Source of the DNA: Gammaproteobacteria bacterium
GTDB taxonomy: Bacteria > Pseudomonadota > Gammaproteobacteria > UBA4575
NCBI GenBank assembly: GCA_014075255.1
Contig: CP046178.1
Location: 705,616-769,615, forward strand
Length of the DNA stretch: 64,000 nt
Reading direction: 5' to 3'
Shown in pieces: positions 2,424-31,534 of the stretch (position 1 is the first letter of the stretch; each line of letters opens with the position of its first letter). The notes beneath the pieces were generated by a model, which saw nothing but the letters and a program-made list of their open reading frames with translations, was not told where the DNA came from and made no database searches. A program made the position numbers and the translations under genes.

Positions 2424-3056
2424 ATGCAAATAACACCAAAAGCACTACTAACTATTTTTTTATTTTTACCCATCGTCACAATTTATGCTTCTGAAGATCA
2501 ACATTCTCACGATGAAGAAAGTATGTTTGAAGAGCATAGCGCTCATGAACATGGTCATGCTTCTTCACAAATTACGTTTATCAACCACACACTCAATCTA
2601 GCATTATCACTACCCTCGATTGATATATTTGGCTTTGAACATGAACCTCACAATGAAAAAGAACATGAAATCATCACTCAATCACAAGCTATCCTTAAGA
2701 ATGCGGATAACATAATTTCCATACATCCTAATAACGAATGTGAACTTAAATCTATTAGCTTGGAAAGCAGCATAATTGATTCTGTAAATGAAAATGATAA
2801 AGATCACAATGATCATGAGTCAGATGAACACCATGATGCCGAATCACATGACGAAGAAGAACACAATGATGAAGAACATAGCGACGTATCGCTCCACTAT
2901 GTTTACAGCTGCTCACAAGACAACCTAGAATCAATAGAATACAAAATATTTGATCACTTCCCCACAATTGAAGAAATTGAAGTACAGTTTGTTTCAAATG
3001 AGACTCAGAATCTATTTACTGCAACACCAAAATCTCGCGCTCTATCATTTAAATAA
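2424..3056 (+). CDS. Histidine-rich periplasmic zinc-binding protein, ZrgA-like (DUF2796-like)
   Basis: Signal peptide. Multiple H/E/D clusters (HSHDEE, HEHGH, HNDHESDEHHDAESHDEEEHNDEEH). The position matches the Vibrio zrgABCDE arrangement. Confidence 0.55.
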   Translation: MQITPKALLTIFLFLPIVTIYASEDQHSHDEESMFEEHSAHEHGHASSQITFINHTLNLALSLPSIDIFGFEHEPHNEKEHEIITQSQAILKNADNIISIHPNNECELKSISLESSIIDSVNENDKDHNDHESDEHHDAESHDEEEHNDEEHSDVSLHYVYSCSQDNLESIEYKIFDHFPTIEEIEVQFVSNETQNLFTATPKSRALSFK

Positions 3057-3091
3057 CAAAATCTAATCCATTACCTTCAATAAATTACTTT

Positions 3092-3796
3092 ATGTCACAA
3101 GATTGTATTCAGTTATCAAACGTTGAGTTTTGTTGGGGCAATAACCAACCATCATTATTCAATATTGAGTCACTGACGCTTAGAAAAGCAGAAAAGTTAT
3201 TTATTCACGGCCCGAGTGGCTGTGGAAAAACAACTTTATTGAATCTGATCTCTGGAGTCCTCATGCCTACTCGAGGAGATATTTTAGTTTTAGGGAATAA
3301 CATGTTTTCCCAAAAACAAAAGTTAAGAGATCAGTATCGAGCAGATCATATGGGAATTATATTTCAACAGTTTAATTTAATTCCCTATCTCAATGTATTA
3401 GAAAATATCACTCTTCCCTGCCTATTTTCATGGCGCAGACGAGAAATGCTTTCCATACAAAAACGTAGCTCTACTGATGAGGCATTAAGATTATTAGCGG
3501 CGCTTGGTTTAAAAGACAAAGATATTATCTTTAAAAATGTAACAGAGTTAAGTGCTGGCCAACAACAACGTGTAGCGGCAGCACGTGCATTAATCGGTTC
3601 TCCTGAAATTATTATTGCAGACGAACCCACATCTGCTTTGGATCAGGACGCTAAACAGGGCTTTTTAGAACTGCTGTTTGATGAAGCGAAGAAAAGTAAC
3701 AGCGCATTGTTATTTGTTAGCCATGATCTAACTTTATCAAATTTATTTGATCGCTCGGTATCATTAAATGAATTTCGCTCTGTGGAAAACGCATGA
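3092..3796 (+). CDS. ABC transporter ATP-binding protein (LolD/FtsE-like; ZrgB-like)
   Basis: Walker A 'GPSGCGKTT', ABC signature 'LSAGQQQRVAAARAL', Walker B 'IIIADEPTSALD'. There is an ATGA overlap with the next gene. Confidence 0.85.
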   Translation: MSQDCIQLSNVEFCWGNNQPSLFNIESLTLRKAEKLFIHGPSGCGKTTLLNLISGVLMPTRGDILVLGNNMFSQKQKLRDQYRADHMGIIFQQFNLIPYLNVLENITLPCLFSWRRREMLSIQKRSSTDEALRLLAALGLKDKDIIFKNVTELSAGQQQRVAAARALIGSPEIIIADEPTSALDQDAKQGFLELLFDEAKKSNSALLFVSHDLTLSNLFDRSVSLNEFRSVENA

Positions 3797-5061
3797 ATAT
3801 CAAGATTTTCCTACTAGCTTTAAAAAGTCTCCGCTTTCGTAAACTTTCAATAGGTTTAACTATTTTCTCACTAGCCATCAGCGTTGTGTTACTTCTAGGG
3901 GTAGATATCATACGCGTACAAGCTAAGGAGAAGTTTGCTAACACTATTAGCGGTACAGACTTGATTGTTGGCTCACGTAGTGGTTCTACACAACTATTGC
4001 TATACAGCATCTTTCATTTAGGTAATGCAACAAACAATGTTTCCTGGGAAAGCTACAACAAGATCATAAGTCATCCACGAGTAAATTGGAGCATCCCTAT
4101 TTCCTTGGGTGATTCACACAAAGGCTACCGTGTAGTTGGAACTACAACAGATATATTTCAATATTATCGATATAGCAAACGTCATAAATTAACGTTCTCA
4201 AGCGGCCAAGAGTTTTCAGGGATTTTTGGTGCAGTTCTTGGTGCAGAAGTTGCCAAAAAACTTGACTACCAACTTGATGAGAAAATTATTCTTGCGCATG
4301 GCATGGGTAATGTAAGTTTTGCCGAACATAAAAACCTACCTTTTACAGTAACAGGAATATTAAAACCTACCGGCACTCCCATTGACCGATCTGTATTGAT
4401 AACGTTAAAAGGATTAGAAGCCGTACATATAGGTTGGGAACAAGGCGTACCTAGTAAAAACGCTATTCAAACAAATGATCTAGAGAAGGATGACGATAGA
4501 CTTCAATCTAAATCCATAACAGCATTTCTACTAGGCCTTAAAAATAAACAAGATATCTTCTCCATACAACGTGGAATAAACAATTATAAATCAGAGCCGT
4601 TACTTGCGATTCTTCCAGGTATTGCACTCATGGAGCTATGGAAAGTGGTTGGAGCAGTAGAAAAAGTAATGCTGATCATTGCAGCACTGGTTGTTGTAAC
4701 GGGTTTGTTAGGGATGTTAGCCATTATATTAACCAACTTAAACGAGCGTCGACGCGAAATTGCAGTGCTGCGTTCTGTTGGAGCTTCACCTAAAACAATA
4801 TTTACACTAATGGTCATTGAATCAGAGATATTGGTGATACTAGGAATATTTTTAGGTTTAATAATTTTGTACTTTTTATTAGCGCTTATTAATCCTATGT
4901 TATTTAATACATATGGCTTAAATATTGAACTTCAATCACCCACCAAGCTCCAATGGATCATGCTACTCATCATCTTATTAGGTGGATTGGTTGCAGCAAT
5001 ATTTCCGGCGATCAGCGCTTATAGGAAAACTTTACAAGACGGGTTAACCATACGAACATGA
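3793..5061 (+). CDS. ABC transporter permease, FtsX/MacB-like (ZrgC-like)
   Basis: One N-terminal TM helix, a large periplasmic domain and three C-terminal TM helices with an FtsX-type layout. It is translationally coupled to flanking genes. Confidence 0.8.
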   Translation: MNIKIFLLALKSLRFRKLSIGLTIFSLAISVVLLLGVDIIRVQAKEKFANTISGTDLIVGSRSGSTQLLLYSIFHLGNATNNVSWESYNKIISHPRVNWSIPISLGDSHKGYRVVGTTTDIFQYYRYSKRHKLTFSSGQEFSGIFGAVLGAEVAKKLDYQLDEKIILAHGMGNVSFAEHKNLPFTVTGILKPTGTPIDRSVLITLKGLEAVHIGWEQGVPSKNAIQTNDLEKDDDRLQSKSITAFLLGLKNKQDIFSIQRGINNYKSEPLLAILPGIALMELWKVVGAVEKVMLIIAALVVVTGLLGMLAIILTNLNERRREIAVLRSVGASPKTIFTLMVIESEILVILGIFLGLIILYFLLALINPMLFNTYGLNIELQSPTKLQWIMLLIILLGGLVAAIFPAISAYRKTLQDGLTIRT

Positions 5062-24521: not shown

Positions 24522-25859
24522 CTAATTTGCCAATTTCCTCAATGCTTCATCCCCATCGATGGCGCCTAATACTTGTGCTTGAAGCAAATGTTCTGATGAA
24601 CTAATTTCATTTTCATATTGCTTTGGTATGGATTTTGATGTGCTGCGAACCCATTCAGGAAGATATTCGTATTTTGTGGGGACTACAGCATCTTTAATTT
24701 TTTTTGCATGAAAAGTAAATACAGCCTCTGTACGCCCATGAGCACTTAAGGGTGAATGCATATACCGAATTGTGTTTCTCTTAGTTGAAACAATTTCAAA
24801 TCCATTTTTCTCAATCAACTCTATTACTTCTTCTTCACTGTAACACCAGGATTGCTGCTTATGGAAGAAAGCTAATGACCCAGTATTGATCCATGAACCC
24901 CCTTCTTTTAGGCATGAGTTTATACGGGGAATATAATCTCTCAAATTTTGCGGGATGATATCTAGTAACCATGGGGTCACTAAGGTGTCAAAACTTCTTT
25001 CTTTTACCGGCGGATTCATACCATCGCCAAACATAAAGAAAATATTCTTATTAATATCTTCCGGCGCTCGACAATTTTGTTCTTTAACAAATGAATCTTT
25101 ATTGAGTGGCGCAATTGGAAATTCATTTAAGCTAAATGGCTGGCCTTGAATTGCCTGGCAAGCTGCAAACATTAATAATGGATTGATATCTAATAAAACT
25201 GAACATGTTGGTATGTACTTTTGATGCAAATCGTAAGAAAGCCGCCCTGCCCCTGAACCTATTGTAAGTACTTTACCTAACTGCTGGTGTTCGGATAGAA
25301 CATTATTTACCGCATCAATCATTTGTTCGTTTTCACCATTATCCCACGCCCAATCACGAAAGATATTATCGTAATAACTAGTTAACCCTTGAACTTTAGG
25401 TGTTTTTGATTTCAATGCACTCAATGGATCATTTATTAACTCAGTATTTAGATGTTCGAATTTAAGCGGAGACAGTAAATCTAATATCTGTGATATCTGT
25501 TGTTTTTTAGCGTTGAGTAATTTATTAATTCGTTTTTGGCCCGACTTACTTAAGCGTTTATCTTTTTGAGCCTCTTTTAAACGCTGTTGCGCTTGTTGAT
25601 TAAGATGCAAAAAACCGTTTAAGCGCGCTTTCCACTCCAGAAGATTTATACTTGGTTGTTCAAACAACCATGGGATTGTCACTTCGCCGCACTTGAATAG
25701 AGGAAATTCGGTACTACATTGATCACATTGAATAACTTGGCCCACTAGCGAGATAGTGGCTTGTTGGTGATTGCATGCTGGGCAAGACATGCTTTCTAGA
25801 AGACACGTAGCTATTGATCCAGAAGCATCAGTTGTTTGCGAAACTTGGGGAGCGCTCAA
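24522..25859 (-). CDS. Putative SAM-dependent methyltransferase with N-terminal zinc-ribbon
   Basis: N-terminal CPAC..CDQC zinc ribbon. The central 'VLTIGSGAGRLSYDL' is a Rossmann motif I. Confidence 0.45.
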   Translation of the reverse strand: MSAPQVSQTTDASGSIATCLLESMSCPACNHQQATISLVGQVIQCDQCSTEFPLFKCGEVTIPWLFEQPSINLLEWKARLNGFLHLNQQAQQRLKEAQKDKRLSKSGQKRINKLLNAKKQQISQILDLLSPLKFEHLNTELINDPLSALKSKTPKVQGLTSYYDNIFRDWAWDNGENEQMIDAVNNVLSEHQQLGKVLTIGSGAGRLSYDLHQKYIPTCSVLLDINPLLMFAACQAIQGQPFSLNEFPIAPLNKDSFVKEQNCRAPEDINKNIFFMFGDGMNPPVKERSFDTLVTPWLLDIIPQNLRDYIPRINSCLKEGGSWINTGSLAFFHKQQSWCYSEEEVIELIEKNGFEIVSTKRNTIRYMHSPLSAHGRTEAVFTFHAKKIKDAVVPTKYEYLPEWVRSTSKSIPKQYENEISSSEHLLQAQVLGAIDGDEALRKLAN

Positions 25860-26007
25860 TTTATGCAGAGAAAATATGATTTACAGGACTTAGTATTGTG
25901 CTAATTCAACCTCAGTATGTCACGAATCTTATCGTCTAATAAACACCGAGCATAAAAAAACGGGATGATTATAAATCATCCCGTTTCTAGTTAGTTTATG
26001 CTACTGA

Positions 26008-27549
26008 TTATACAGTGATTTGGTTGAAAGCAATATGCTCCACACCAGGGTTAGCGCCTAAGGTAGGCGTACCTAATGCTGCTCCAAATGCACCTGCATC
26101 TCCATGTAGTGCCAAGTAGTTTAAGACCACTACTTCAGCAAGAGAAACTACACTGTTTGCATAAGGGCTAGAGTTAGTATCGATGGTACCACCTGCCGTA
26201 AATGCACCAAGCTGATTAGATGCTGCACCGTTGCGCATCAGATTAGCTGTAGCTACCAGTGGACTGTACACAAACATAGCACTTGATGCTCTTTGTGAAT
26301 TGTCTGAACGCCAGCGGAATTTAGTTACATTACCGCCATTTGCACCTGCATTTTCAGGATTGTTCGTATCTGCAACTACAGCGCCATCACTGAAAAGATA
26401 GATCATCAAAGGTTGGTTTTGTAATCTTGCATACTCTAATGATGCACCAATGATTTGACCAATCTTAAAGTCTTTGTCATCCGTATCAGGACGTGGATTC
26501 TGGTGATAATCTCGACCACCAAACTCCATGGTGCCTATACCGCCATAGCCATTCACAACCACTTTCATGGTTGCTGCAGCTTTGCGGAAGTCACCATCAT
26601 TACTAATCTCACCATTAGGAAAGATGCTTAGTAAATCAGCATCCGCTTCAGGATCTAAATCCGTTGGCAAGATAGGTGATTGGAAGGTTGCAAGACTTTG
26701 ATCGTAGCCACATTGTATTAACTCTTCAGTAGCCGCTGCTTCAGTAATTAAACCAAGTTTAAGCTGCGTAAGAATTTGAGTTGCTACGGCAACACTATCG
26801 CTTGGGAAACCATCTGCTTCACCACCACTTAGACCAACTGCTTCGTTACGGTTGCTAACACGTGTCGGACCAAACTCTGCAGAAACCATGTAATCAGGTG
26901 CTCTTGAGCGACCGCCTGACTCTGAGTTTCGCGTACCTGTTGATACAACAAATTCACCTCGAGCCCCTGTACGAGCAATTCCGTACATAGGGTTATGAGG
27001 ATTGTTGCCTGTATCGTTTTCAGATCTGGCTGCGATAATGGATCCGTTCACATTACCTCTTGTGCCCGCACTGGTTTTATCCAGCATGCCTCTTAACATC
27101 GCACTATTTGGGTGCATCGCCAAACCAAAATCAGTGTTTACACCGACTGCATTTGGACTAATTGCTGCAGGCAGCCCTAATGATTCGTATGCATCATCTG
27201 GTAAGAAGGCAGTTTGACCACCTGCGCCGCCGACCATGATGTTAGAACCTGCAATGTTTGCACCGCCGCCCATATCAATCGCTAGGAAAGGAATTTTTCC
27301 TGCACCTAGCAATCCGTCGTCTGCACTAATTTCGCATGCATGTGCTCTGTTAACCATTGCACCTAAACTTGGTAGTAAAACTGTGCTAGTGCCTGCAATG
27401 AGCCCTCTTCCAAGAAACTCTCTGCGGGTGACAGGTCTACCATGACCGGTACTTCGGCACGATTCCTCGATGCGCTGCTCAAAGTGGCGATGAGCCTCTT
27501 CTGCGCGTCGACTTTGCTCTCTGTATTTCGTCATTGTCATATACCTCAC
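26008..27549 (-). CDS. Tat-signal secreted protein, unassigned family (possibly DUF1501-like sulfatase-fold)
   Basis: 'RPVTRREFLGRGLIAGTSTVLL' twin-arginine signal. Gly-rich 'FLAIDMGGGANIAG' and 'MEFGGRDYHQN' are reminiscent of DUF1501. It is the last gene of a three-gene operon, 7 nt after the previous gene. Confidence 0.4.
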   Translation of the reverse strand: MRYMTMTKYREQSRRAEEAHRHFEQRIEESCRSTGHGRPVTRREFLGRGLIAGTSTVLLPSLGAMVNRAHACEISADDGLLGAGKIPFLAIDMGGGANIAGSNIMVGGAGGQTAFLPDDAYESLGLPAAISPNAVGVNTDFGLAMHPNSAMLRGMLDKTSAGTRGNVNGSIIAARSENDTGNNPHNPMYGIARTGARGEFVVSTGTRNSESGGRSRAPDYMVSAEFGPTRVSNRNEAVGLSGGEADGFPSDSVAVATQILTQLKLGLITEAAATEELIQCGYDQSLATFQSPILPTDLDPEADADLLSIFPNGEISNDGDFRKAAATMKVVVNGYGGIGTMEFGGRDYHQNPRPDTDDKDFKIGQIIGASLEYARLQNQPLMIYLFSDGAVVADTNNPENAGANGGNVTKFRWRSDNSQRASSAMFVYSPLVATANLMRNGAASNQLGAFTAGGTIDTNSSPYANSVVSLAEVVVLNYLALHGDAGAFGAALGTPTLGANPGVEHIAFNQITV

Positions 27550-27556
27550 TAGCCTA

Positions 27557-29719
27557 TTAGTTAATTGTTACTGTGCTGCTTGCTAAGCCTGCTGCACATA
27601 CTGCTTGTAGAACTTGACGACCTGCATTGCCATTACATCCATTTGCACAGTTTTCAGCATCCATGATGCCTACTAGCGCTGCTATAGATGCAGTGCGATC
27701 AGGTTGATTTAGCAAGTTCACTCCAGCAGTTTTATCTATAACTGCTCCAGCAATTGCATCTTTTTCACCAGCTGCTATTGCACAGTTATTATCATTAAAG
27801 AAGTCTCTGCAACGACCATTGTTATTGGTGATCTCACCACAATAAGTTGTTGCTAAACGTTGAATCGCTATTTGTTGTGCACCACCAAAGCCAAGTGCAT
27901 CAGCAGTTGGAGGCAACTGATCTCGTAATGCGTCATAACGATCTCGTACGTCACGATCACGCTGACTGATTCCTGTGAGAGCAGCCATAGTGTCGTGCAC
28001 TTGTGAGAAAGTACGCACACCTACATCCGGCTCCGGCACATCAGCTGGCGGCACAGGTTCTGATGGTCCTGCAATAGATTCTGTAGTACCCGTTTGAGCA
28101 CCAAGCACTTCAAATTGAAGGCTCAATTGATCTAATGCTGCACCATTTACAGATGGAATTAATGCACCAAGAGGCGAAATCTCTTGACCAGATTGATTCA
28201 CCATCATGTTGACTCTGCGGAATGTTTGCATCGCTAAAGGAACATCGTTGTTCACTGCAATGCGCATGTTCTTCACTTGAACACCTGCTACATCCGTCAC
28301 CAACTTAGGACGTGCAAATACATATGAAAAAGGATCCATTTCGTACGCTTGCATTTCAACGTATCCAGGAGCTCCTAATACAGACGCTACATCAAAACGT
28401 AGAGATGTAATCGCACCTGCACCTGCTTCAAAGTTTTGTGCTACTTGTGCACCATTTAAAGCCGCATTGTGAATCGCTACCATTTTAAAGGTTCCGCGCC
28501 ACAAACGATCGTTTGTAACCTCATTACCTAACACAAACAAGTTATCGTCCTGCCAGTTCAACATATCACCCGCTATGGCTTCTTCGACAGCTAATTGACC
28601 ATTAACATACAACTTACGACCTCCAGCCATATTGTCATACGTCATTACTACATGTGTTAGCTCAGTAATTACCATGTCTTCAGTACGAAGCGCAGGATTA
28701 CTCCCATTCGCACCTGAGTTTATGGTTTGAACACGTGAATCATATTGTTCTACTTGTTGACCTAAAGTGAAATTACGTCGACCAGTACTAATAGAATATG
28801 AAACGATCCGTGCAGGTCCAGTTTGAGTTATATTTTCTGGGATAACCCATGCTTCAACACTAAACTGGTTTCCGCCAGATAATAAATTAAATAGCTTTTG
28901 ACTATCTGCTAAAGAAGCTTGAGCTTTTCCTGATACGTTGGTTAAACCGCCTTGTGGGTCCCATTCAGTTCCCTCAAGAGCTAAAGTCAAGTCAGCGCCT
29001 ACGTTACTGGTTCCGACTGTGGTATTACCAGTACCTTCAGCAAATGCAAATAGGGTAATCATGTTTGCATCTGCACGTGGAATACTGCCTTCTACAACTT
29101 GTGAGAAATTTGTAGTTGCACTAGCAACAATGTTGCCATTGTTGTTATTTCCACCCGCTGCATCAATTTCTGCTTTCATAGCGGTTATAGCTGCTAAATA
29201 CTCTCCAGCAATTCTTTCACAATTTGGAGCACAGTTATGATCGTTATTAGGCCTTACATAAAAACTAGATAGATTTGGCGTACTAGTATTGTACAGACCT
29301 TGACCACTTGCCAATGCATAGGAACCTGCAGCGTTATCGACAGCAAATTGTATGGGTGCGTTTTCATTTGCATTATTTGAATGACAAAACATGCATGAAT
29401 TTATAGGGCTTCTAATCACTGGAAATAAGTGAGTCGTAAATAAAGCTAAGTTATCTACATCATTACCAGCGTCATTATTGCCACCGTCACCATTATCAAT
29501 AGGCTCATCATCACCCATGTCGCCGTTACCGCTACCGCTACCGCTACCGCTACCGTTTGATGCAGTTGACGCAGGATCATCAGATCCACCGCCTCCACCG
29601 CCACCGCAAGCAGTTAATACAAACGCTAGCGCAATCATGCAAATCATCTGTAGCACATAACTACGTGATGTTTGTACACTTGTGCTGCTACGCTCAAATA
29701 AATAATTATTCTGACTCAT
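27557..29719 (-). CDS. Large lipoprotein with Gly/Ser linker, single CxxCH haem motif and LamG/concanavalin-like domain
   Basis: Likely start MSQNN at 29719, with AGGAG 8 nt upstream, giving about 720 aa. The ORF-track start at 29779 gives 740 aa. The lipobox is 'VLTAC'. There are GGGGGGGS and SGSGSGSGN low-complexity runs and a 'CMFCH' motif. The Laminin_G_3-like segment runs from about 'VSGKAQASL' to 'VAQNFEAG'. Confidence 0.5.
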   Translation of the reverse strand: MSQNNYLFERSSTSVQTSRSYVLQMICMIALAFVLTACGGGGGGGSDDPASTASNGSGSGSGSGNGDMGDDEPIDNGDGGNNDAGNDVDNLALFTTHLFPVIRSPINSCMFCHSNNANENAPIQFAVDNAAGSYALASGQGLYNTSTPNLSSFYVRPNNDHNCAPNCERIAGEYLAAITAMKAEIDAAGGNNNNGNIVASATTNFSQVVEGSIPRADANMITLFAFAEGTGNTTVGTSNVGADLTLALEGTEWDPQGGLTNVSGKAQASLADSQKLFNLLSGGNQFSVEAWVIPENITQTGPARIVSYSISTGRRNFTLGQQVEQYDSRVQTINSGANGSNPALRTEDMVITELTHVVMTYDNMAGGRKLYVNGQLAVEEAIAGDMLNWQDDNLFVLGNEVTNDRLWRGTFKMVAIHNAALNGAQVAQNFEAGAGAITSLRFDVASVLGAPGYVEMQAYEMDPFSYVFARPKLVTDVAGVQVKNMRIAVNNDVPLAMQTFRRVNMMVNQSGQEISPLGALIPSVNGAALDQLSLQFEVLGAQTGTTESIAGPSEPVPPADVPEPDVGVRTFSQVHDTMAALTGISQRDRDVRDRYDALRDQLPPTADALGFGGAQQIAIQRLATTYCGEITNNNGRCRDFFNDNNCAIAAGEKDAIAGAVIDKTAGVNLLNQPDRTASIAALVGIMDAENCANGCNGNAGRQVLQAVCAAGLASSTVTIN

Positions 29720-29763
29720 AACATTTCTCCTAATTGCCATACCTAATTCGTTGGGCAACATCG

Positions 29764-30951
29764 TTATTGGCCCATGCAATAAATAGCCGTCTCTGCAAAG
29801 ACTCGCTTCATACTGCGGTTATTCGCTTCAAAAATAGTTGCAATGTTTTCCACTGCTGTGTTATCTGCATCTCCGTTAGGACTGCGATGACACACTTTTT
29901 CAAATACTTTCTTAACTTGGCATTCGGAAAACTGTCGCGACTGTGAAAGCTCCATACCTAATTCTTTAGCGCCATTACCTAGTCCGCCATTAGCAGCATT
30001 CCAACCTACCCAGCTGTTCTTGCCAGAACGCCAGTAGTTAGCCCATGAATCATTTTGAGTATTAAATCCCGTTGGGAACACACCTGCATCGCGTACATAT
30101 TTTGGCTGTACTTCGCCTGCTGTATAAATAAGTCGCTCACCTTCATCTTCAACTTCAACATAGTCGTAGTAGGCGAATGCACCCGCAAGACCATCTAAAC
30201 CTGCGTGACAGGTAAGACAATCATTCATAAATATTTTGCTGTCGCCACCTGGTGAACGATCTACGTCTTGACGCACACGGTTTGGATAAGCTGCTTTATC
30301 ACGAAAAGCTTCCATATCCATACACATGAAATTTAACGTCGCAAAACGTACTGCTGCGCGGTTTGTGCCCGCTACTATAAAAGCCTCAGCATAACCACGT
30401 GTAGTCATGATGCCTGCAGTTTGAGCAGCACCGAGTTCACTATTAAGTGAAGACTGAGTTGAAAAAATTAAAACAGAGGGGTCACTAAAATTAACACGAT
30501 CGTTTTGAAGATCTACATAGTGATCATTATCATTGATTGAATAATCAGCATCAGCTGCTCCTGCTGGAGCGTGATAAACCCTATCTGCATATAGAATTTG
30601 ATCAAAGGGAACGTTATCACGAACAAAACCCATTACTGTCGCCGTAGAATCATTGAGATCTCGATAAACTGATTGATCTCGATTAGTCCAAGGTGTCGCC
30701 CAATCTTTAATTGTAGTGTTTATAAAAGACGGGTTAGCCATTGCAATATCTGCAGCTAGAAGCGGCTGTGCTGTAATCAGATTCGTCATCTGTGTAAGCA
30801 CTGCTTCTGTTGGCGGCACACCGGCTAAGCGGTCATGCATTCGTTTAGCTTGTTCGCGTGGTCCTGCAAGAGAAACTGAAGTACTTACAATTCCTAATGT
30901 AAAGATAAACGCACCACATACGTTAATAATTTTTTGTCTACTTAAATGCAT
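29764..30951 (-). CDS. Secreted protein with single CxxCH haem motif (PSCyt-like?), first gene of the operon
   Basis: Likely start MHLSRQK at 30951 gives a clean signal peptide. 'NDCLTCHAGLDG' is the haem motif. Confidence 0.45.
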   Translation of the reverse strand: MHLSRQKIINVCGAFIFTLGIVSTSVSLAGPREQAKRMHDRLAGVPPTEAVLTQMTNLITAQPLLAADIAMANPSFINTTIKDWATPWTNRDQSVYRDLNDSTATVMGFVRDNVPFDQILYADRVYHAPAGAADADYSINDNDHYVDLQNDRVNFSDPSVLIFSTQSSLNSELGAAQTAGIMTTRGYAEAFIVAGTNRAAVRFATLNFMCMDMEAFRDKAAYPNRVRQDVDRSPGGDSKIFMNDCLTCHAGLDGLAGAFAYYDYVEVEDEGERLIYTAGEVQPKYVRDAGVFPTGFNTQNDSWANYWRSGKNSWVGWNAANGGLGNGAKELGMELSQSRQFSECQVKKVFEKVCHRSPNGDADNTAVENIATIFEANNRSMKRVFAETAIYCMGQ

Positions 30952-31489
30952 TTTCGCACCTCTCGTATTTAAAACATTCATATCGATTAACTTAAAATTC
31001 GCTCGCTTAAGCAATTAAGTAAACGAAAGCTTATCGACAGCCACTTCCCGGACTGTGTGGAATGAGAAAAAACGAAACGAAATGCGGTAGGTAACTATTA
31101 ACAAAAGCTCTTTTAACCACCACTGGTTAAAATAACTATTATTTAATCGTTACGGTCCAACCTGATGAACTGATTTTCACCATCCTAGCGAATATCATGC
31201 TCGGCAAGATGCCGTTTCATTGTTCCAAACTCCAGGTACGAATACTGAAGCTAAATAAAAGCAATAAAACAGCAAGTAAGATAAATGGATGGTTTTAACC
31301 TATGAACGGTTATTAAGAATTGGGAAGAAAAATAATCAACTTAAAATCAATACATTATGAATTCTCGAAATATTCAAATTACACAATATTATTAGAATAT
31401 AGCCAGCAATTAAGATAACCGACTGAAAGAAGGAAGTATAATTTTTAAGTTAAATAATACTCAAATCTACTTTGAATTTTCATTCTAGA

Positions 31490-31527
31490 AAAGAATTTGT
31501 AAGTGCATCACAGTTTGATGCACTTAC
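31490..31527 (-). terminator. Rho-independent terminator after nfeD (12-bp perfect stem GTAAGTGCATCA/TGATGCACTTAC)
   Basis: The hairpin at 31499..31527 lies immediately downstream of the NfeD stop. It is followed on the minus strand by AAATTCTTTTCT. Confidence 0.5.
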
Positions 31528-31534
31528 AGAATTA

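Follow-up and report, generated by a model that had tools for sequence, protein, structure and literature searches.

Four consecutive minus-strand open reading frames (ORFs), which we call g1, g2, g3 and g4, lie at 24.5-31.0 kb of the gammaproteobacterial DNA analysed here, a stretch of 64,000 nucleotides referred to as the window. The first three form a triad that encodes exported proteins: g1 has a Sec signal and one haem c site, g2 is a lipoprotein combining a haem c site with a LamG domain, and g3 carries a twin-arginine translocation (Tat) signal and is predicted to adopt the fold of the alkaline phosphatase superfamily. To judge from the sequences, these genes are native to Gammaproteobacteria of sea and soil, where they are widespread and under strong constraint. 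We regard it as plausible, with somewhat less than even confidence, that the exported products of this conserved operon form an extracytoplasmic multi-protein complex, in which the Tat-exported metalloenzyme g3 would be wired to two c-type haem partners.

Gene order and distribution of the triad

The triad is carried by at least 586 species genomes (one genome was scanned per species). We fetched 79 loci, each from a separate genome, and divided them into two clades by the identity of their g3 to the window protein. Clade A (identity of at least 55%) comprises uncultured marine Gammaproteobacteria, Woeseiaceae, Azotimanducaceae and a metagenome-assembled genome (MAG) of the Thiotrichales; clade B (about 42%) comprises many cultured Microbulbifer species, Steroidobacteraceae, Lentisalinibacter as well as Myxococcota and Spirochaetales MAGs. 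There was one locus per genome among those fetched, suggesting that the triad is present as a single copy. The original prediction, made from the window alone, had called the occurrence of such genes in a gammaproteobacterium notable; since the exact triad is native to this class and widespread in it, it is no oddity there.

Wherever a locus extends far enough upstream, its genes are in the order g1-g2-g3; these are about 70 loci from at least three phyla, in which the spacing is tight or overlapping while the flanking genes vary. For g1 and g3, 60-65% identity is maintained across families. The constant unit is the triad alone, in clade A together with g4. It could be argued that the three exported proteins are functionally independent and merely syntenic, but this is highly improbable given an identical order and such spacing in loci with differing flanks; moreover, no terminator-like site was found at the g1-g2 and g2-g3 junctions of the window. 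The three-gene operon proposed earlier agrees with the order kept in these loci, but the block does not end at position 26008 as had been proposed, and g4 belongs to it in many genomes.

Start codons of all four genes were chosen using Shine-Dalgarno-like sequences and orthologue alignments (Table 1). For g1, a GAGAGG Shine-Dalgarno-like sequence and the alignment agree, and for g3 both kinds of evidence favour the ATG at 27534 over a GTG at 27549; alternative starts of g2 are located at 29761 and 29647. The resulting gaps are 44 nucleotides between g1 and g2, 22 nucleotides between g2 and g3 and 217 nucleotides between g3 and g4. Of the two gaps predicted earlier, the one of about 45 nucleotides is thereby retained, but the one of 7 nucleotides has to be replaced by the 22 that follow from the start of g3.

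Motif positions were checked by translation of the window ORFs. CLTCH, CMFCH, the lipobox followed by a Gly/Ser linker, the twin arginine and GGRDYH were all found in the three minus-strand genes to which the original prediction had assigned them. Composition-preserving shuffling of each of the two haem-motif proteins, g1 and g2, produced a CxxCH in 0.14-0.23% of cases. Because the quoted motifs are all present and CxxCH is rare by chance (about 0.2% of shuffles), this initial observation is confirmed.

Table 1. Features of genes g1 to g4 and their upstream boundary (window coordinates)
Feature	Position	Strand	Basis or remark
g1, 395 aa, Sec signal and one haem c site, remotely PSCyt2/PSCyt3/PSD2-like	29764-30951	-	ORF, start 30951
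g1 haem c attachment motif CLTCH	30205-30219	-	translation
g2, about 720 aa, lipoprotein with Gly/Ser linker, CMFCH and LamG	27557-29719	-	ORF; AGGAG Shine-Dalgarno-like sequence before ATG 29719
g2 lipobox LTAC, Gly at +2	29606-29617	-	translation
g2 haem c attachment motif CMFCH	29381-29395	-	translation
g2 HNCxxxC motif (HNCAPNC)	29219-29239	-	invariant columns H137, C139 and C143 of alignment A5
g2 LamG/concanavalin-A-like domain (Pfam Laminin_G_3, PF13385)	28439-28882	-	E = 4e-21
g3, 508 aa, Tat-exported, predicted alkaline-phosphatase-superfamily fold	26008-27534	-	ORF; ATG 27534
g3 twin-arginine motif TRREFL	27412-27429	-	translation
g3 motif GGRDYH	26503-26520	-	D342 and H344 invariant in alignments A3 and A6
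g4, 422 aa, cytoplasmic, Trm112-like zinc ribbon and CARME-type SAM methyltransferase domain	24522-25790	-	Pfam CARME E = 3e-16
Terminator-like hairpin, 13-bp stem, downstream of the upstream NfeD gene	31498-31528	-	upstream boundary of the unit

The strong hairpin that bounds the unit separates an NfeD/Band_7 gene pair from the region of 500 nucleotides upstream of the triad. Between this hairpin and g1, promoter-like hexamers are present at 31435-31483, which are consensus matches only. No RNA family was matched in an Rfam scan of the window. The G+C content over the triad (window positions 26001-30000) is 0.43-0.46, compared to 0.35-0.39 in the flanking 10 kb; the Gly/Ala-rich composition of the proteins or a foreign origin are candidate causes.

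The three exported proteins

The pattern [ST]RRx[FLM][LIV] is present in 75 of 77 g3 orthologues, and both arginines are invariant in 40 diverse members that share 26-47% identity. Besides these and several glycines, D174, N178, D342, H344, D383 and D411 are invariant in the same 40 members, and H31, S144, S171 and two cysteines are nearly so. Modelling predicts a fold of the sulfatase/alkaline-phosphatase type, and according to the secondary structure of the model, D342 and H344 (GGxDYH) as well as D383 (FSDG) follow core strands. Since the alkaline phosphatase superfamily places its metal ligands at such sites, we infer a metal-ligand role for these residues. The Asp and His of GGRDYH are candidate metal ligands and g3 is, on the basis of the model, a candidate catalytic metalloenzyme.

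The assignment of g3 as a DUF1501-like Tat protein with a sulfatase fold is supported for the export signal and for the predicted fold, but no match to DUF1501 could be found in Pfam. No Pfam family was detected in the window protein (E <= 1), in 26 diverse orthologues (E <= 10) or in ten divergent representatives (E <= 1), and neither DUF1501 (PF07394) nor HXXSHH/DUF1552 (PF07586), with which PSCyt3/PSD2 proteins are usually paired, matched in any of these scans. The g3 family profile found no relative among PDB sequences, and a search of the fetched loci with a DUF1501-like motif expression gave no usable comparison sequence. The homologues of g3 form more than 3,600 clusters at 90% identity, almost all of them unnamed, with no Pfam domain among the clusters listed. 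In an exhaustive profile search over 1.84 billion cluster representatives, 1,194 relatives were found at E <= 0.001, showing a compact family without a tail into a larger one. As far as the model goes, g3 is a sulfatase-fold protein, yet not a demonstrable member of DUF1501.

Some public records of g3 homologues (P0043 and P0107 among them) bear the name 'general secretion pathway protein GspF', for which we found no support. In clade A, g3 has a conserved, predicted helical extension of about 30 amino acids before the Tat motif (KYREQxRRAE...EQRIEESCR; residues 1-33, window 27435-27534), and across the whole family a histidine six residues ahead of the twin arginine is nearly invariant. The extension or the histidine could be a chaperone-binding or modification site.

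The signal peptide of g1 is probably cleaved between SVSLA and GPREQ. Exactly one CxxCH is present at the same aligned position in 66 of 66 g1 orthologues, and four further cysteines are invariant. In the alignment of the family, neither a Met nor a second His is invariant, so that the haem may have an open distal side or an unusual ligand there. The resemblance to PSCyt/PSD proteins that had been suggested for g1 is visible in its family but stays below the threshold in the window protein itself, which matches Pfam PSD2 (PF07624) with 16.1 bits (cut-off 25.8) and for which PSCyt3 (PF07627) is not reported. Among 26 diverse orthologues, PSD2 was found in 20 (best E = 1.6e-7), PSCyt3 in 13 (best E = 0.019) and PSCyt2 in seven. 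The local pattern CxxCHxGMDPLAQAFAYYDF is followed by a PSD2-like C-terminus, in agreement with what we take to be the order in planctomycete proteins, PSCyt3 and then PSD2.

Homologues of g1 fall into more than 5,200 clusters at 90% identity; almost all are unnamed, and the listed ones contain no Pfam domain. The AlphaFold2 model of g1 (pLDDT 60) is confident for the helical N- and C-terminal parts only and has no convincing match in the PDB. The genome of the window is an uncultured MAG, and a g1 with 100% identity is found on an ENA scaffold, flanked by the same genes.

From its N-terminus, g2 consists of the lipobox, a low-complexity linker of Gly, Ser, Asp and Asn, a cytochrome module, the LamG domain, a beta-rich region, a Pro-rich linker and a helical C-terminal domain that contains Cys. 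The description of g2 as a lipoprotein with a LamG domain holds: 63 of 66 orthologues have a lipobox, and Laminin_G_3 matches the window protein with 76 bits (cut-off 27.6) and is present in 23 of 23 orthologues. Position +2 after the lipobox is mostly Gly or Ser and Asp once. In Proteobacteria, Gly or Ser at this position suggests sorting to the outer membrane, and this location is therefore suggested for g2. As for g1, the haem motif has been conserved: it is kept in all full-length g2 orthologues, including one CX3CH variant (CAALCH in the close orthologue of locus L006, at about 2701-4947). A loss of the CxxCH motifs among orthologues, which would have refuted the original prediction, was thus not seen. 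Most clade B proteins and a few of clade A have two cytochrome modules, and weak matches to cytochrome c families were obtained for 13 of 23 orthologues. About 48 residues past CxxCH, an invariant His-Asn-Cys-x3-Cys is located. Based on this conservation, its His is a candidate for the sixth haem ligand, and its two Cys are likely to form a disulfide.

The possibility that g1 and g2 are paralogues was rejected, since the hhalign probability is 9% and the similarity is confined to the surroundings of CxxCH. The two were merged in BLAST clustering, for which overlapping stop-to-stop ORFs are the suspected cause.

The structures most similar to the g3 model are carbohydrate sulfatases, nucleotide pyrophosphatases and phosphoethanolamine transferases, which would also fit a different function of the triad, without redox chemistry. 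In that case g3 would act on an envelope or extracellular glycoconjugate, either as a hydrolase of phospho- or sulfo-esters or as a transferase similar to EptA, LtaS, BcsG or OpgB, the LamG domain of g2 would bind carbohydrate, and the haems would be structural or sensory only. LamG is conserved in all g2 proteins, and its profile weakly matches the CBM40 (sialic-acid-binding) modules of sialidases; in Verrucomicrobia, PSCyt genes often come with carbohydrate-binding modules and are located near sulfatase genes (PMC5615132). We nevertheless consider this explanation unlikely. A formylglycine (type I) sulfatase was rejected: the motif C/S-x-P/A-x-R is absent from the five g3 orthologues inspected, the window protein and four others, and there is no match to the Pfam Sulfatase family (the pattern occurs, at whatever position, in 22 of 77 orthologues). 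The g3 family has no invariant Ser, Thr or Cys that could serve as nucleophile, S144 being nearly invariant only, and neither glycoside hydrolase nor sulfatase genes recur beside the triad in the fetched loci. Furthermore, if no redox chemistry were involved, it would be difficult to account for two or three strictly conserved haem sites and for the cytochromes, ApbE and DsbD that recur beside the triad.

Relation to known systems and possible function

The triad resembles modules known from other phyla. Pairs of PSCyt/PSD genes with DUF1501 or DUF1552 genes have been described for Planctomycetes, Verrucomicrobia and Lentisphaerae (Kamneva et al. 2012, PMC3542564; He et al. 2017, PMC5615132). 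These modules of the Planctomycetes-Verrucomicrobia-Chlamydiae (PVC) superphylum have Tat signals, a single CxxCH and optionally Laminin_G_3, and where DUF1501, PSCyt/PSD, LamG and Tat signals come together they were interpreted as probable enzymes linked to electron transport; as had been stated for the present pairing, the published descriptions give no function (PMC3542564, PMC5615132). The triad shares with them a Tat-signal protein beside a secreted protein that has a single CxxCH and is otherwise not cytochrome-like, the Laminin_G_3 domain, and a first gene with weak but recurrent matches to PSD2, PSCyt3 and PSCyt2. The context of g3 is of the DUF1501 type in its Tat motif (75 of 77), in having g1 and g2 upstream in all loci, and in the PSD2 and PSCyt3 matches of this g1. 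The order of the g3 motifs also resembles that of DUF1501, which we take to be a first beta-strand followed by GG, R-S, GGxDxH and S-D/E-G. Differences are that the Pfam models of DUF1501 and DUF1552 do not detect g3, that the haem part is split over two genes, that the triad is found as one copy per genome whereas the planctomycete modules are massively paralogous, that its carriers are mainly Gammaproteobacteria, and that a CARME-type methyltransferase gene is often added to it. On sequence grounds, the triad is best described as a distant cousin of the planctomycete PSCyt/DUF1501 modules.

Proteobacterial pairs of DUF1800 and DUF1501 genes similarly combine a helical secreted partner with a Tat-exported, enzyme-like protein of similar size. 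Here, in contrast, no DUF1800 or DUF1501 match was found in Pfam, and the lipoprotein g2 has no counterpart in those pairs; to our knowledge, DUF1800 proteins also lack CxxCH. Similarity to the fold of phycobilisome linkers has been reported for DUF1800 proteins (PMC12981691), and the g1 model likewise gives weak phycobilisome-linker-like fold matches.

With the alkaline phosphatase superfamily (type I sulfatases, NPP/autotaxin, PhoK/PafA, EptA/MCR-1, LtaS and BcsG), g3 shares the conserved Asp and His residues that follow core strands. In contrast to these enzymes, to which its identity is 5-14%, it has no formylglycine motif and no match to a family hidden Markov model (HMM), and it combines a Tat signal with obligatory haem-protein neighbours. 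The triad shares its export logic and operon layout with periplasmic dehydrogenases such as the sulfite dehydrogenase SorAB, in which a Tat-exported catalytic subunit is combined with a Sec-exported cytochrome c subunit. This is a functional analogy only; the putative catalytic subunit of the triad lacks the signatures of molybdopterin, copper or iron-sulfur families.

In the complex that we favour, g3 would be the catalytic subunit, with a conserved Asp/His/Asn metal site on an alkaline-phosphatase-superfamily scaffold; it would fold, and probably also acquire its metal, in the cytoplasm before Tat exports it. The Sec-exported, mostly helical g1 would carry one c-type haem, whose distal site may be open as no sixth ligand is conserved, and would be the dedicated partner of g3, just as PSCyt/PSD proteins supposedly are for DUF1501 and DUF1552 proteins. 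The lipoprotein g2, probably in the outer membrane and with one or two probably bis-His haems, would tether the g1-g3 pair and link it to periplasmic electron carriers, while its LamG domain may dock to a glycan or a protein. Where present, the histidine-N-methyltransferase-like g4 may act in the cytoplasm, either by modifying g3 prior to its export or by producing a small-molecule partner.

Several observations weigh against this interpretation. We know of no redox-active enzyme with an alkaline phosphatase fold, so that a direct electronic link between haem and the metal of g3 would be without known precedent. Confidence in the models of g1 and g3 is no more than moderate (pLDDT about 60 for both), and they represent the conserved RSENDTGNNPHNP loop of g3 and the haem-binding part of g1 poorly. 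A Foldseek search of g3 against the PDB gave no significant match, although the top 50 all belong to one superfamily, and searches of Pfam, of NCBIfam and, with a family profile, of PDB sequences linked g3 neither to DUF1501 or DUF1552 nor to a family of sulfatases or phosphatases. In addition, the window genome has no accessory redox genes near the triad, and a set of accessory genes common to both clades had to be rejected, as the 187-190-aa proteins and TPR proteins of clade A are not detectably homologous to those of clade B. The redox context is thus a recurring theme rather than a fixed set of partners.

A bolder version of the proposed complex, to which we assign a low probability, is that the operon represents an unrecognised class of periplasmic redox metalloenzymes. 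The metal of g3 would be redox-active or bind an oxyanion, electrons would be exchanged with the open-site haem of g1 and the bis-His g2, g4 would introduce a histidine-type methylation before export, and the enzyme would catalyse an as yet unassigned reaction in abundant sediment Gammaproteobacteria such as Woeseiaceae. If true, this would provide the first functional handle on the large universe of PSCyt/DUF1501 proteins. The present findings do not point to a specific surprising function.

PSCyt/PSD modules have been without an assigned function since they were described around 2004. For DUF1501, DUF1800, DUF1549, DUF1552, DUF1553, DUF1585, DUF1588 and DUF1592, the literature yielded comparative-genomic descriptions but no functional study, and among the papers on related DUF families we found none on a gammaproteobacterial module of this kind. 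g1 and g3 represent large, very strongly conserved families that have neither a Pfam or NCBIfam model nor a solved relative, and the families of the triad reach hundreds of species, including the cosmopolitan Woeseiaceae of marine sediments. The triad can be seen as a compact, single-copy version of the modules of PSCyt/PSD and Tat-exported enzymes that fill the genomes of Planctomycetes and Verrucomicrobia. Its carriers include cultured Microbulbifer and relatives of Steroidobacter, making it tractable; for experiments, an operon that is present once per genome in Gammaproteobacteria that can be grown offers a far better start than dozens of planctomycete paralogues.

g4 and the neighbouring genes

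The g4 protein has no signal peptide. Its N-terminal CxxC...CxxC zinc ribbon is labelled Trm112 in some records, and it matches Pfam CARME (PF07942) with 60 bits (cut-off 27); the same family was found in all 120 g4 homologues listed. Weak matches connect g4 by sequence to solved carnosine N-methyltransferases and, in addition, to a model of the OvoA mercaptohistidine N-methyltransferase. The gene is located downstream of g3 in 38 loci, nearly all of clade A and five of clade B, and two distant homologues that were picked independently lie 9 and 26 nucleotides after g3. The g4 family is small (468 matches) and seems to be confined to the triad context; its matches are on contigs whose lengths coincide with those of the contigs with g3 matches. 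This distribution argues for g4 as a fourth, lineage-dependent member of the operon, and a modification of g3 by g4 before Tat export is possible. In locus L002, a 130-aa zinc-ribbon gene follows g3; its interpretation as a remnant of g4 was not supported.

The other neighbours of the triad vary by lineage and are repeatedly redox-related. In ten clade A loci, cytochromes with 21 and with 7-9 haems adjoin it. In clade B, 33 loci have a divergently oriented lipoprotein of about 900 amino acids that combines two CxxCH with a PD40 propeller and, in the middle, a hydrazine-synthase-alpha domain; an outer-membrane beta-barrel protein is found in 32 loci, TPR proteins in 29 and ApbE in 16. A DsbD-like and a thioredoxin-like protein are encoded beside the triad in spirochaete and myxobacterial loci.

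These neighbours raise the question whether the triad could service other proteins, namely in assembling or maintaining cytochrome systems of the periplasm or outer membrane or in metal handling, its clients being the neighbouring multihaem cytochromes or the di-haem propeller protein. The recurrence of multihaem cytochromes, TPR proteins, the outer-membrane beta-barrel, ApbE and DsbD in different lineages would fit such a role, as would the housekeeping-like character of a single-copy and very highly conserved triad. The window genome and many clade A loci, however, have no cytochrome genes near the triad, the accessory sets of clades A and B are unrelated, and g1, g2 and g3 match no known maturation-factor family. 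A service role for cytochromes is therefore distinctly unlikely in our opinion.

Examples of the clade A cytochromes, which have 21 and 7-9 CxxCH, are found at L002:461-2784 (minus strand) and L085:1-3621 (plus strand). Some of these loci add an 850-aa TPR protein and a 190-aa lipoprotein; in L085, all of these genes are on the same strand and directly upstream of g1. The lipoprotein of clade B is represented by L042:1141-3855 (minus strand) and its homologues in Microbulbifer and Steroidobacteraceae, with a Pfam E of 5e-14 for the hydrazine-synthase-alpha middle domain. In Microbulbifer, the ApbE flavin-transferase gene is located immediately 3' of g3 (L042:9596-10600, plus strand, and 15 more loci) and is followed by genes for a 187-aa secreted protein and two large TPR proteins. 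In the Spirochaetales MAGs, a DsbD-like thiol-disulfide reductase gene is divergent from g1 (L041:2409-4376 and L071:1796-4150, both minus strand), and in L071 it adjoins a 190-aa ORF that clusters with the thioredoxin/AhpC-type gene of L001.

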